Below are positions 550 to 47,570 of a stretch of DNA of 64,000 nucleotides, in pieces. Source of the DNA: an uncultured bacterium (GTDB taxonomy: Bacteria; Patescibacteriota; Minisyncoccia; Phycocordibacterales; UBA9973); NCBI GenBank assembly GCA_903892035.1, contig CAITGV010000005.1, positions 41,011 to 105,010 on the forward strand, in the 5' to 3' direction. The position numbers and the translations under genes are program-made. The notes beneath the pieces are model-generated. The model was not told the DNA's origin, did no database searches, and was given only the letters and a program-made list of their open reading frames with translations. Positions within the stretch are counted from its first letter, which is position 1. The number at the start of each line of letters is the position of its first letter.

Positions 550-671
550 AGGTCAAAAGTATATCATAAAAATAAAAATGAGAAAAATTTAGGCAAAAAA
601 AGAAACACCCATCTCTGAATGCCTCTCCTGTTAATTTTTATGAACATTTAGTTTCGCTGTTAAATACCAAT

Positions 672-707
672 TTTACCAACTCAGAGCGATAGGTTTGACT
701 TGGTAAA
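672..707. repeat. 36-bp inverted-repeat unit (TTTACCAACTCAGAGCGATAGGTTTGACTTGGTAAA). It has 8-bp palindromic ends TTTACCAA/TTGGTAAA and lies between the stop of the PaaX-like gene and the dnaJ start.
   Basis: Exact reverse complement of 1264-1299 (36/36), read directly from the sequence. It sits about 120 bp upstream of the dnaJ start (minus strand). Confidence 0.9.
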
Positions 708-750
708 AAAATTTATTTGGTTGCTATAAAGTAGTTGGGGGAAGAAACCG

Positions 751-1245
751 TTAAAATTTAAATCCTTTAGCCAACTTGAATGTCTTGAAATTGTCTTTGA
801 TTTTTATTTCTTGCACATATTTTATAAAATCTTTCGGCAATGGAGATGGGCCTACCCAGACACTTCGTTGAATCATAACGAAGTGAAATTTGCGAAGCTC
901 GCGTCTAAACCAGTTTCTTTCCGTTTTTTTGTCTTCCGGTATATCATATAATATCAATAGATCCTTCGGGTCATTTTCTGTTTTCTCGGGTGTAAATTTC
1001 TTAAGAATAGTTCGCGTCTTTTCATTTAAGAATAATTCTCCTTTGTAGGTAATGACATAGTTACCATACATTTCCTTTATATACCCTTTGCTTTTTAAAT
1101 CTGAACACCTGTTAGCCAAAGTCTGATATTTATAATGCTTGAAATCTGGCAATCCCAAAAATCCCACGCGCATACCTTTGTATCGCAAAACCTGCTTATT
1201 TTTACTTTCACTTAAGTATTTCAAAACCTTCCTTTCAATACTCAT
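751..1245 (-). CDS. PaaX-like small regulator: N-terminal winged-helix DNA-binding domain plus C-terminal Cas2/VapD-like fold (truncated, no PaaX_C domain)
   Basis: 164-aa ORF. The N-terminal ~90 aa (YQTLANRCSDLKSKGYIKEMYGNYVITYKGELFL) resembles the PaaX wHTH. The segment DLLILYDIPEDKKTERNWFRRELRKFHFVMIQRSVWVG matches the Cas2-like beta-alpha-beta core (YDI..D, QRSVW ~ Cas2 QYSVF; PaaX middle domain WLLLLSEGLDK..L.KQLIWQGFG). It is flanked by perfect 36-bp inverted repeats. Confidence 0.6.
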   Translation of the reverse strand: MSIERKVLKYLSESKNKQVLRYKGMRVGFLGLPDFKHYKYQTLANRCSDLKSKGYIKEMYGNYVITYKGELFLNEKTRTILKKFTPEKTENDPKDLLILYDIPEDKKTERNWFRRELRKFHFVMIQRSVWVGPSPLPKDFIKYVQEIKIKDNFKTFKLAKGFKF

Positions 1246-1263
1246 ATCAAATATTGTATCATC

Positions 1264-1299
1264 TTTACCAAGTCAAACCTATCGCTCTGAGTTGGTAAA
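1264..1299. repeat. Second copy of the 36-bp inverted-repeat unit (TTTACCAAGTCAAACCTATCGCTCTGAGTTGGTAAA). It lies 18 bp upstream of the PaaX-like gene start and 68 bp upstream of the rmuC start.
   Basis: Exact reverse complement of 672-707. It sits in the divergent promoter region between the PaaX-like gene (minus) and rmuC (plus). Confidence 0.9.
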
Positions 1300-1367
1300 G
1301 TATACGATTTTTGTTTTGAGTAAGAGTTTTTTACAATTATTTTTTGAATTTATGCTAAAATATCTCT

Positions 1368-7580: not shown

Positions 7581-7914
7581 TGTTCAACAATGAGCTACTC
7601 AAGGCCACATTTTCACGATTTGCAAATGAAGTTGCGGATGATTCTACAAAACCCAAACCTTTTGCATAACTCATATCTACAGAATTATCTTTAGACATAT
7701 ATTGCAATTCTAAGTTTGAAACATCGGTTGCGACTGATTTCATTTTAACTTCCAAATTCTTTTTTGCTAAAACATTGAAAACTGTATGCGCCAGAAAATA
7801 AATATATAATATCGCTACAATACCAAAAGATAGAGCTACAATCTTAAACACCCTTTTTTCAAGGTCATTGTTATTTACGATATTTGTTTTTGTTTGTAAT
7901 CTTATTTTTGTCAT
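7570..7914 (-). CDS. ftsL: Cell division protein FtsL-like (small bitopic membrane protein)
   Basis: 114 aa with a single TM helix followed by a coiled-coil-like region, in the conserved position between rsmH and ftsI. Confidence 0.55.
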   Translation of the reverse strand: MTKIRLQTKTNIVNNNDLEKRVFKIVALSFGIVAILYIYFLAHTVFNVLAKKNLEVKMKSVATDVSNLELQYMSKDNSVDMSYAKGLGFVESSATSFANRENVALSSSLLNNEI

Positions 7915-8917
7915 GTTTTTCTATAATTCTTAATTTTGCACTTCTTGATCTTGGGTTTTCTTTAATTTCTTTTTTACTTGATGTAATTGGTTTTTTTGTA
8001 ATCAATTCTCCAATATTTTCATCTTTATATTCTTTAAATAATCTTTTCACTATTCTGTCTTCTAAACTGTGAAATGAAATGACTGCAATGCGCCCTCCAA
8101 TATTTAAAATTTCCATACTTGCCGACAATGCTTTCTTTATTGTTTGCAATTCGTCATTTACTGCTATTCGTAGTGCTTGGAAAGTGCGTGTCGCAAAATG
8201 TGTCTTTTGGTGTCTGTAACTTGCCGGTACAGCATTTTTTATAATTTCAACAAGTTCAAATGTTGTATTGATTTCCTTCGTCTGGCGATACTCTACTATA
8301 AATTTTGCAATTCTTCGTGAATACCTTTCTTCGCCATAACCATAAATAATGTCAGCAATATTTTCTTCGTCCCATTCATTTACAATTTCTTTTGCTGAAA
8401 GCTTATTTACTCCAGCGCGCTCCATTGTCATAAGCAATGGTTCATCTCTCATAAAAGAGAAACCTCGCATAGACTCATCGAGCTGATATGAACTGATTCC
8501 TAAATCAAAAAGTATTGCATCAGCTTTTTTGGCGACTAAGTCCCCTTTTGGGGACTTAGTCGCCAAATCTAGGGCTTTCGCAATTTCAGCAAAACTTCCA
8601 TTATAAGTAAAAATTTTATTACCAACTTTTTTTACTCGCTCTGTCGCTTCGGTAATTGCATCGATATCTTTATCGATACCAATCATTTTCAAATTTTTAC
8701 CAAATTTTTCTGCTATTGCTACACTGTGTCCACCAAGACCAAGTGTCGCATCGATAAAAACACTATCAGACTTTATTTCCAAACCCTCTATAACTTCATT
8801 TAAAAGAACCGGTATATGATTCATAAATTTATAGCACTCCGACATTTCCAAGCTTTTCTGCCAAACTATCTGCTTTCTTTTCAACCATTGCTTTGTATTC
8901 GCTCCAAACTTTGTCAT
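7871..8917 (-). CDS. rsmH: 16S rRNA (cytosine1402-N4)-methyltransferase RsmH (MraW)
   Basis: 348 aa containing the SAM-MTase motifs (FIDATLGLGGHS, DLGISSYQLDE). It also contains an in-frame 34-bp perfect palindrome at 8531-8564. Confidence 0.85.
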   Translation of the reverse strand: MTKFGANTKQWLKRKQIVWQKSLEMSECYKFMNHIPVLLNEVIEGLEIKSDSVFIDATLGLGGHSVAIAEKFGKNLKMIGIDKDIDAITEATERVKKVGNKIFTYNGSFAEIAKALDLATKSPKGDLVAKKADAILFDLGISSYQLDESMRGFSFMRDEPLLMTMERAGVNKLSAKEIVNEWDEENIADIIYGYGEERYSRRIAKFIVEYRQTKEINTTFELVEIIKNAVPASYRHQKTHFATRTFQALRIAVNDELQTIKKALSASMEILNIGGRIAVISFHSLEDRIVKRLFKEYKDENIGELITKKPITSSKKEIKENPRSRSAKLRIIEKHDKNKITNKNKYRK

Positions 8918-34884: not shown

Positions 34885-34922
34885 ATTTTTATTATATCAC
34901 TACTACATTAATACGTAAAAAA

Positions 34923-46508: not shown

Positions 46509-47570
46509 TTATTTATCTTGCCCTAAAATGCGAATCAAAGCAAGCTCTAAGGGAAGTTCTGCAATAAAAGCACTACGGTTGTCATTGTAAGCTTGTAGCA
46601 ATTCCAAGAGTGCTCCTGACGTGATTTTCCCTCCCTTTTCTGCTAGCATTGTCTTATAAAATGCCATTTCAGTTTCATTTGAATTATCGGCAACGAGTTT
46701 TTTCATCTCAGGAGCATAGCGCAAAAGTAAAAGCTGGCGCATTTTGTGAATTACAAGCTTTGTAAACAATTTCATATCTACATTGTCCGCCGATGCTTGA
46801 GACACCGTCGAAAGCCCTAATGGTAAATCCCCTTTTGCAATTGATGATACAACTTCGTTTATCAAAGTATCGCGTGGTGCACCTGTGATGACTTCGATAT
46901 CTTCCCGAGTAATTTTTTCCGCCCGCCCTGAGGAATTCGAAGGGTTATTCGAAATATTTGAAACTTTTTGCAAAACTCCAAGAGCATCACGGAAAGATCC
47001 ATCTGCAAGAATTGCAATCAATTCTGCTCCAGATTTATCGAGAGAAATTTTTTCTTTCTTTGCGACAGTTAAAACAGTCTCGGAAATGACAGCCTCACTC
47101 GGTTTTTTCAAAACGAAACTCTGACAACGCGAAACAATTGTTTCTGGAACTTTTTCAAATTCTGTCGTAGCGAGAATAAAAATCACATGCGCCGGAGGCT
47201 CTTCGAGAGTTTTCAAAAGCGCATTGAATGCTTCTTTTGTTAGCATGTGCACTTCGTCAATAATATAAACTTTATATTTTGAATCGAAAGGCAAAGTACG
47301 CACTCCTTCGCGTAGTTCGCGAATATCATCAATTCCTCTATTTGAAGCTGCGTCTATTTCGTAAATATCATTTGCACTTGTGCCAAGCTCTGTCGCTATG
47401 ATTCGAGCAATTGTCGTCTTGCCAATTCCCCTTCCACCTGTAAAAAGGTAAGCGTGAGCGACTTTTCCACTTGCAAGCGATGCAGTCAAAATTTTGACCA
47501 CATGCTCCTGCCCCACCACATCGGCAAATTTACTTGGTCGGTATTTTCTATATAATGCAATTTCTGACAT
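46509..47570 (-). CDS. dnaX: DNA polymerase III subunit gamma/tau (short form, clamp-loader ATPase)
   Basis: 353 aa AAA+ protein with Walker A GGRGIGKTT, Walker B DEVHML and the SRC motif region VSRCQ. Confidence 0.8.
   Translation of the reverse strand: MSEIALYRKYRPSKFADVVGQEHVVKILTASLASGKVAHAYLFTGGRGIGKTTIARIIATELGTSANDIYEIDAASNRGIDDIRELREGVRTLPFDSKYKVYIIDEVHMLTKEAFNALLKTLEEPPAHVIFILATTEFEKVPETIVSRCQSFVLKKPSEAVISETVLTVAKKEKISLDKSGAELIAILADGSFRDALGVLQKVSNISNNPSNSSGRAEKITREDIEVITGAPRDTLINEVVSSIAKGDLPLGLSTVSQASADNVDMKLFTKLVIHKMRQLLLLRYAPEMKKLVADNSNETEMAFYKTMLAEKGGKITSGALLELLQAYNDNRSAFIAELPLELALIRILGQDK

Follow-up and report, generated by a model that had tools for sequence, protein, structure and literature searches.

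A short gene between two copies of a 36-bp element

A small gene lies between dnaJ and rmuC in a 64,000-nt stretch of contig CAITGV010000005.1 from an uncultured bacterium of the Patescibacteriota (the whole stretch is called the window here). It is bracketed by two copies of a 36-bp element, and comparison with its relatives suggests that it encodes a short, PaaX-like autorepressor for which the two copies are the probable operators. The copies at 672–707 (TTTACCAACTCAGAGCGATAGGTTTGACTTGGTAAA) and 1264–1299 are exact reverse complements of each other (36/36) with 556 nt between them. The sole open reading frame (ORF) of at least 40 aa filling the 672–1299 interval runs from 1245 to 751 on the minus strand, starts with ATG and encodes 164 aa; its product is named X. 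The right copy is 18 nt from the X ATG and 68 nt from the rmuC start (1368), and the left copy is 122 nt from the dnaJ start (549). Each copy is a quasi-palindrome with 8-bp palindromic ends. When folded individually as hairpins, the two copies have energies of −13.8 and −10.2 kcal/mol (z of −5.2 and −3.6). A third match to the 36-mer, allowing up to three mismatches, is absent from the 64-kb window, and none is expected from 100 shuffles.

The exact repeats, the lone ORF, the palindromic ends and the three distances had been described in a sequence-only reading of the window, and direct comparison confirmed all of them. To these we add a conserved central motif, C-N-A-T-N-G, which sits within what that reading called the asymmetric core of the 36-mer, and an extended −10 box. 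The cassette contains the following features.

1264–1299: the element's upstream (5′) copy, which probably acts as the operator of the X promoter, at about −19 to −54 from the ATG and probable transcription start, centered near −36; exact reverse complement of 672–707, with equivalents throughout the family
1253–1261, minus strand: predicted extended −10 of X (TGATACAAT), lying between the right copy and the start codon, with its end 7 nt from that codon; a leaderless mRNA is probable
751–1245, minus strand: gene X, 164 aa, with a winged helix at about residues 1–75, a linker and a Cas2/PaaX_M-type ferredoxin-like domain at residues 94–162
672–707: downstream (3′) copy of the element, 43 nt past the X stop codon, a second putative binding site and/or 3′ hairpin
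664–669: possible additional half-site, reading TACCAA (gene strand TTGGTA) and placed 10 bp farther out than the arm of the 3′ copy, as read from the sequence; the evidence for it is weak

A similar third TGGTAA at 10-bp spacing is found at one of the homologous loci described below (L004).

Protein X joins a putative winged helix to a Cas2-like domain

Residues 96–157 of X match Pfam PaaX_M (PF20803), the Cas2-like central domain of PaaX, with an E value of 2.8e-13 (50.2 bits versus a cut-off of 24), and also CRISPR_Cas2 (PF09827) with an E value of 1.8e-7 (31.7 bits versus 23.8). The Cas2 model TIGR01573 scores 26.8 bits against its cut-off of 24.5, and PADLOC Cas2 models match X too. The winged helix gives weak sequence matches: HTH_45 at 16.5 bits (below cut-off), a PHROG annotated as ‘transcriptional regulator’ at 5.7e-6, and a PADLOC winged-helix model at 1.4e-3. 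An AlphaFold2 model of X, built with database homologs, has a mean confidence score (pLDDT) of 78.7, and shows a helix–helix–hairpin layout at residues 3–74 with moderate confidence.

When the PDB was searched with this model using Foldseek, Escherichia coli PaaX (8A39) came first with a probability of 0.99, followed by many Cas2 structures, VapD and the PaaX-like Rv0674. Because a PDB sequence search with X gave marginal Cas2 matches only, the link to PaaX comes through fold comparison. PaaX_C was found by neither Pfam nor NCBIfam in X, which ends at residue 164, and the full-length PaaX equivalog TIGR02277 scores 20.2 bits, far under its cut-off of 264.55. The proposed architecture, a winged helix with a Cas2/PaaX_M fold and no PaaX_C domain, is therefore supported, with the winged helix, weak at the sequence level, as a putative domain, and the structure prediction places the C-terminal half in the PaaX/Cas2 fold.

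More than 1,100 close homologs of X occur in Nomurabacteria/Paceibacterota, and a profile search yielded 2,966 clusters at 50% identity, mostly of 155–185 aa. Across the family the N-terminal domain is variable, and the Cas2-like domain is almost invariant, including its YDI motif. Database names of the homologs vary among ‘CRISPR-associated endonuclease Cas2’, ‘DNA-binding transcriptional regulator PaaX’ and hypothetical protein. The Cas2 label is most likely a mislabel, which could inflate the counts of CRISPR components in genomes of the candidate phyla radiation (CPR).

The elements keep a fixed place at both ends of X genes

Homologous loci from CPR Paceibacteria were fetched, 31 from genomes and 80 from metagenomes. 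The upstream element is present in 91 of the 107 scorable loci, and in 69 of these 91 it ends 16–18 nt before the ATG. A −10 box (TATAAT with at most one mismatch) follows 85 of the 91 upstream elements at an offset of 4–6 nt, and it is extended by TGn in 66. The −10 box ends 6–8 nt before the ATG across the family, so X mRNA is probably leaderless, and the element is centered near −35.5, the place of a −35 box. The downstream copy is present in 101 of the 111 loci, starting 0–5 nt past the stop codon in 52 of them (−1 to 5 nt in 56).

For comparison, 57 of 727 background windows have element-like matches. Under a strict definition of the element, 137 matches flank X in 548 kb, and shuffled sequence has none. 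The same layout is seen in a distant member (E value of 1e-23) from a GC-richer genome. At about 110 loci, the X genes nearly always carry this bracket.

The centers of the two copies are 528–626 bp apart, with a median of 555 bp. Among 71 non-redundant loci, a direct relative orientation fits better in 30 and an inverted one in 11, with ties in the other 30. Exact direct pairs (36/36) occur at L039 and L088, and the window belongs to the inverted minority. Direct copies being commoner than inverted ones, ‘inverted repeat’ is not the conserved feature.

The four half-sites of a locus change together

When the half-sites are folded onto one another, positions 2–6 from the outside (TTACC in the window’s clade) agree at 86–99% within the four half-sites of a locus, compared with only 20–57% between distant clades. 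The center of the element is kept everywhere, with C at position 16, A/T at the dyad (18) and G or C at position 15; the motif C-N-A-T-N-G is invariant. The spacer at positions 9–11 is poorly conserved even inside one element. Arm classes follow the X clades and their recognition-helix variants, and paralogs of one genome differ in their arms.

Arm class TTACCA: recognition helix YKYQTLANRCS
Arm class TTACCC: recognition helix YKYQTLANKFS
Arm class CTAACT: recognition helix KKQSVRN
Arm class TTCCAT: recognition helix NKESVRN
Arm class TACATA: recognition helix NKYSVRN
Arm class GTACTA: recognition helix YSKSALKN

Because the four half-sites change together while the spacer drifts, as expected under selection by one dimeric DNA-binding protein, X is predicted to bind the elements. 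This concerted change is the main argument for such binding. The notion that the element is a dimer operator for autoregulation, raised in the sequence-only reading, also gains support from the fixed place next to the −10 box and from arms that change with the recognition helix.

In the window’s clades, spacer halves within one element are less alike than halves across the two copies (27 loci versus 5, p = 0.001), which suggests that the element there is an oriented unit rather than a stem kept by compensatory changes. Compensatory hairpin evolution had been suggested by L018 and L019. Across the whole family, comparing the two halves within an element gives no greater likeness than comparing halves between copies, and the idea was dropped as a general claim.

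Incidentally, L095 (22–57 and 800–940) has elements of two other arm classes (a TTTACC type and a AATACTCAA type) besides its own TACATAT type, which hints at cross-talk between paralogs.

The downstream copy belongs to X

Across the family, the 3′ copy is positioned consistently with respect to the X stop codon, while its distance to the next gene’s own conserved promoter varies from about 0 to more than 300 nt. Given this contrast, and a start 0–5 nt past the stop codon at about half of the loci, it belongs to X and not to the neighbor. A role as promoter-operator of the next gene was considered and rejected, because a TGn-extended −10 at the offset used by the 5′ copy follows the downstream copy in none of 99 cases.

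An ordinary terminator is found after X in only 4 of 57 loci, though such terminators are common in these genomes. The elements themselves were rejected as ordinary terminators: the genomes’ classic terminators, with an A-run, a GC stem and a T-run, differ from them, the T/A polarity of the element is opposite, and the 5′ copy is inside a promoter. Across the family, element hairpins have median energies of −12.6 to −14.1 kcal/mol. In the 3′ copy, the sense strand has more G·T than A·C mismatches in 27 loci and fewer in 11 (p = 0.014), a weak bias that is confined to this copy.

A model for X

The observations are the domains of X, a layout conserved across the family, the joint evolution of four half-sites and the stability of genomic positions, and a mechanism can be proposed from them. 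We consider X to be a short PaaX-like autorepressor with two gene-flanking operators, and assign this reading a probability of about 0.7. The Cas2-fold dimerization domain would hold two winged-helix domains apart, so that an X dimer could bind the 36-bp quasi-palindromic operator. The outer arms (TTACCA…TGGTAA in the window’s clade) would be read by the variable recognition helices, and the nearly invariant C-terminal part probably either reads the invariant center, C-N-A-T-N-G, or is accommodated by its shape. The upstream copy would take the place of the −35 region in the leaderless extended −10 promoter of X. Bound X should then exclude RNA polymerase, resulting in negative autoregulation of the kind that PaaX exerts on its promoter Px.

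The second copy past the stop codon would be a second site for X. It may be an auxiliary operator that cooperates with the promoter-proximal one through a DNA loop of about 555 bp, as OL and OR do around lambda cI. It may also be a protein roadblock or an RNA hairpin at which the X transcript ends, as X genes are usually without an ordinary terminator, or it may be an upstream site for the next promoter. The first two options are not exclusive.

Several points weigh against this model. All of its support comes from sequence comparison, and the link between arms and recognition helices could partly reflect shared ancestry of linked sequences. Helical phasing of the distance between the two copies, sought as support for looping, was not found; this is neutral for a 550-bp loop and lends it no support. 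X sites are detectable only beside the X gene itself, which gives no obvious benefit to the cell unless neighbors are affected too. In the window, the 3′ copy is 43 nt from the stop codon rather than 0–5 nt, and it is the weaker hairpin on the mRNA strand, opposite to the sense-strand trend. The near-invariance of the Cas2-like domain, YDI motif included, exceeds the need of a simple dimerization module and hints at a further activity or partner of X.

Genes and promoters around X

X genes reside in stable, clade-specific contexts: rpsL-rpsG-X-(small ORF)-fusA, hppA-X-tig-clpP, X-proS-mreB next to rpsB/tsf, and ligA-X-gatC-gatA, as well as pgk-X, X-murG-gltX and X-pilin next to topA. The gene downstream of X is co-oriented in most loci. 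It is recurrently fusA (21 loci), tig with clpP (18), proS (7) or gatC/gatA (5), and it is dnaJ in the window, where the neighbors of X are dnaJ, rmuC and prs. Both dnaJ and rmuC have their own leaderless extended −10 promoters, clear of the elements and outside the cassette.

558–566, minus strand: extended −10 of dnaJ (TGATATACT), 8 nt before the dnaJ ATG and about 105 nt from the 3′ element
1353–1361, plus strand: extended −10 of rmuC (TGCTAAAAT), 6 nt before the rmuC ATG; the 5′ element is at about −69 to −104 from the rmuC start

Such promoters are widespread in the window. A −10 box, often TGn-extended, ends 5–12 nt before the ATG in about 27 of the 56 longer genes (for example at 1353–1367, 558–566, 34885–34900 and 46571–46585), and a Shine-Dalgarno-like motif is found in only 3 of the 56. 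Many transcription units of this organism seem to start as leaderless mRNAs.

Conserved promoters are also seen upstream of the recurrent neighbors. In the X-fusA region (L041, L048, L039, L044 and L036), fusA has a conserved σ70-type promoter, TTGCAA-N17-TATATT, and immediately ahead of the ATG its leader contains a hairpin that resembles a terminator and carries a T-run (e.g., AAGACGGGGGCGTCTTTTTATTT), a possible attenuator for EF-G. Upstream of tig (L011, L013, L018–L023 and L076–L098), a very conserved promoter block (TTTGAAAATTATTAGATTTTAGTATAAGAT) is located about 10 nt, or in some loci about 45 nt, before the ATG, and it is kept across genomes whose X proteins are only about 50% identical.

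In relatives, neither rmuC (79–83% identical) nor dnaJ (63–66% identical) has X or the element nearby. The comparison of dnaJ-rmuC regions that the sequence-only reading called for was thus informative in that neither gene carries the element elsewhere, but it gave no orthologous empty site, as synteny around rmuC and dnaJ is not conserved. The contig gene table of the window’s organism has no dnaK or grpE beyond dnaJ. Within the 64-kb window there is no CIRCE-like site, as that reading had said, and no further element or excess of half-sites. A 36-nt near-perfect palindrome at 8530–8565 (TGGCGACTAAGTCCCCTTTTGGGGACTTAGTCGCCA, 16 of 18 pairs) is unrelated to the X element; it is without the flanking A/T runs of usual terminators and lies inside or at the end of the ORF 7871–8917.

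One X-like gene was seen at a classical chaperone operon, and it is the only one. At L123 (448–969, minus strand), the gene for a distant PaaX_M protein of 173 aa lies between grpE and dnaK in divergent orientation to dnaK-dnaJ, with a related core (TTTTCTGCGACCGCAAAAAA) and two −10 boxes upstream.

Alternative explanations

In addition to autoregulation, and compatibly with it, X might act through the two copies on its neighbors, that is on dnaJ (downstream, same strand) and rmuC (divergent) in the window and on fusA, tig-clpP, proS, gatCA or dnaK elsewhere, X proteins being dedicated regulators of translation and protein quality control. We regard this as a tentative possibility with clearly less than even odds. 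The co-oriented downstream genes repeatedly serve translation or proteostasis, as counted above, the distant X-like gene lies between grpE and dnaK, and a third element at L055 is about 12 nt upstream of the fusA −35. With a terminator usually missing after X, transcription from the strong X promoter could run on into the next gene. On the other hand, the neighbors’ own conserved promoters are at variable distances and are never overlapped by an element in a fixed geometry, the downstream copies are not followed by a TGn −10 (0/99), dnaJ and rmuC of relatives are without the element, and the window has no further sites. CPR genomes are also rich in translation genes, and the functional theme may be background. 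The narrower proposal of the sequence-only reading, a heat-shock and DNA-repair mini-regulon in which identical operators upstream of dnaJ and rmuC functionally replace HrcA/CIRCE, was not borne out and has very little probability left. The elements are indeed positioned as described, the window lacks CIRCE and one distant relative sits beside dnaK, but the two copies are explained by a family-wide bracket around X whatever the neighbors are, with an element place fixed to X. In addition, the relatives’ rmuC and dnaJ loci have neither X nor the element, the promoters of the two genes are clear of it, dnaK and grpE do not accompany dnaJ, and other copies or a half-site excess are absent from the window. 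It is also unlikely, though less so than the mini-regulon, that the elements work mainly as RNA (or single-strand DNA) hairpins instead of double-stranded operators. As hairpins they would serve as a terminator, stabilizer or processing site, which the Cas2-like domain might bind or cut. Both copies in the window fold well, the 3′ copy has the sense-strand G·T bias and abuts the stop codon of a gene without ordinary terminators, and the relatives Cas2 and VapD are RNases (PMC3506569). The 5′ copy, however, is upstream of the −10 and outside the X transcript, the spacer halves in the window’s clades give no sign of compensatory stem upkeep, the T-run/A-run polarity is opposite to that of intrinsic terminators, and the conserved positions, at the arms and the center, look like protein contacts and not like a continuous stem.

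The sequence-only reading had alternatively taken the 36-mers for terminal inverted repeats of a miniature mobile element; X, with a Cas2-fold nuclease and a winged helix, would then be its transposase or recombinase. The unit is compact with sharply defined ends, X occurs in more than 10 genomic contexts with several paralogs per genome, and at some loci (the window, L039 and L088) all 36 positions agree between the copies. Extra copies exist as well (L088:2745–2982; L009:1401, 3813 and 4705; L055:447–1010; L002:3738; L007:2130; L020:979). Those at L088 are three identical tandem copies, 94–108 nt apart, upstream of X, and the others bracket a neighboring gene: the small ‘unk6’ ORF before fusA, a 291-aa ORF, a 580-aa zinc-ribbon protein or a 226-aa ORF. 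Against mobility, the orientation is direct in 30 loci and inverted in 11, and target-site duplications are not detected, as the flanks share 4.01 versus 3.84 ± 0.12 in permuted pairs, with 2 anchored matches observed versus 3.4 expected. X paralogs are 45–70% identical and sit in clade-conserved contexts; as contexts are kept within clades across 30–50% protein divergence, the X gene appears to be inherited vertically. Within the L005/L036/L043 group, upstream copies are orthologous to one another and evolve apart from the downstream ones, which form a lineage of their own. X resembles no transposase family in Pfam, NCBIfam, PADLOC or PHROGs, the 64-kb window has the two copies only, and promoter logic fully accounts for the 5′ copy. 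The mobile-element proposal is therefore hardly tenable, the many contexts and the extra or tandem copies keeping a small residual probability for it. Slightly less improbable, at similarly low odds, is that the bracket, besides its regulatory layout, is the footprint of a DNA transaction by Cas2-fold X, in which insertion or recombination duplicates the 36-bp site as the repeat is duplicated in CRISPR spacer integration. The exact direct 36/36 pairs, the element-gene-element-gene-element arrangements at L002, L007, L020 and L055, the tandem array at L088, and the near-invariant Cas2-like domain with YDI would fit such a course. If so, X would be a site-specific element that derives from Cas2 and works without Cas1, with a bearing on how CRISPR repeats originated.

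Significance and comparison with known systems

Transcription control is almost unexplored in CPR bacteria (Patescibacteria), which cannot be grown alone and encode very few regulators. The X family offers this field thousands of clusters, a defined operator and a leaderless extended −10 promoter type, all directly testable. It would provide a specificity code, with variable arms matched to a variable recognition helix and an invariant center to an invariant Cas2-like domain, and an example of a minimal transcription factor built around a Cas2-fold domain. It also allows the common annotation of X genes as ‘Cas2’ or ‘PaaX’ to be corrected. If control of fusA, tig-clpP, proS, gatCAB and dnaK/dnaJ by X paralogs is real, translation and proteostasis in the lineage would be regulated mainly by these paralogs. 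In the literature, we found no description of the short X family or its gene-flanking operators.

The closest known system is PaaX, the GntR-like repressor of phenylacetate catabolism (PDB 8A39 and 3L09), whose N-terminal winged helix, putative in X, is likewise followed by a Cas2-like central domain. PaaX recognizes TGATTC-N27-GAATCA and represses its own promoter by steric hindrance (PMC9493321). The operator of X, TTTACCAA-N20-TTGGTAAA, similarly has widely spaced inverted half-sites (TTACCA-N22-TGGTAA) and, at the sequence level, abuts its own extended −10, where repression would probably be steric too. X differs in being about half the size and in lacking PaaX_C, which in PaaX holds the phenylacetyl-CoA-responsive part. 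Its neighbors are not paa genes but dnaJ, rmuC and prs, or elsewhere rpsG/fusA, tig/clpP, proS and gatCA; it occurs in CPR Paceibacteria with several paralogs per genome; its operator has the invariant center C-N-A-T-N-G; and a second operator copy immediately follows the gene. With no effector domain, no paa context and a score under the equivalog cut-off, X is not a PaaX orthologue.

With Cas2, a subunit of CRISPR adaptation, and VapD, a toxin RNase, X shares the motif YDI...R..L...Q.SV. Its domain is, however, fused to a DNA-binding domain and found in a housekeeping-gene context with no cas1, CRISPR array or antitoxin partner. The window has no repeat array and no CRISPR-DR family of Rfam, and no cas genes are among the neighbors of the 111 loci. 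Because cas1 and an array are lacking, X is not a CRISPR Cas2.

REP/RAYT, IS200/IS605 and pdif modules resemble the X cassette in that a gene of about 160 aa with a ferredoxin-like fold is bracketed by short palindromic or hairpin sequences. X has no HUH/Y1 motif and no Y1_Tnp match in Pfam, NCBIfam or PHROGs. In contrast to the sequences of those modules, the palindromes of X are not dispersed and are found only next to X, the orientation of the two copies is not fixed, and the 5′ copy is built into a promoter.

In its way of working, the cassette is best compared with lambda CI, whose OR and OL flank cI-rexAB, and with the Lac, Gal and Deo repressors with their auxiliary operators. In these systems a repressor gene or operon lies between two of its own operators, at distances from a few hundred to a few thousand bp, and a loop joining the two tightens autoregulation. 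This is an analogy of working and not of ancestry, there being no homology, and looping in X is a proposal; the second operator of X is stereotyped at the stop codon, which is unusual for auxiliary operators. The sequence-only reading held that an autoregulating cassette or a mobile element would alike be novel, which is overstated, as the subfamily and the layout are new and the principle is not. The X family emerges as a sizable, CPR-centered, PaaX-like subfamily whose two-operator cassette is unusual and stereotyped and whose specificity code can be read, and its underlying principle is that of a classical autorepressor.

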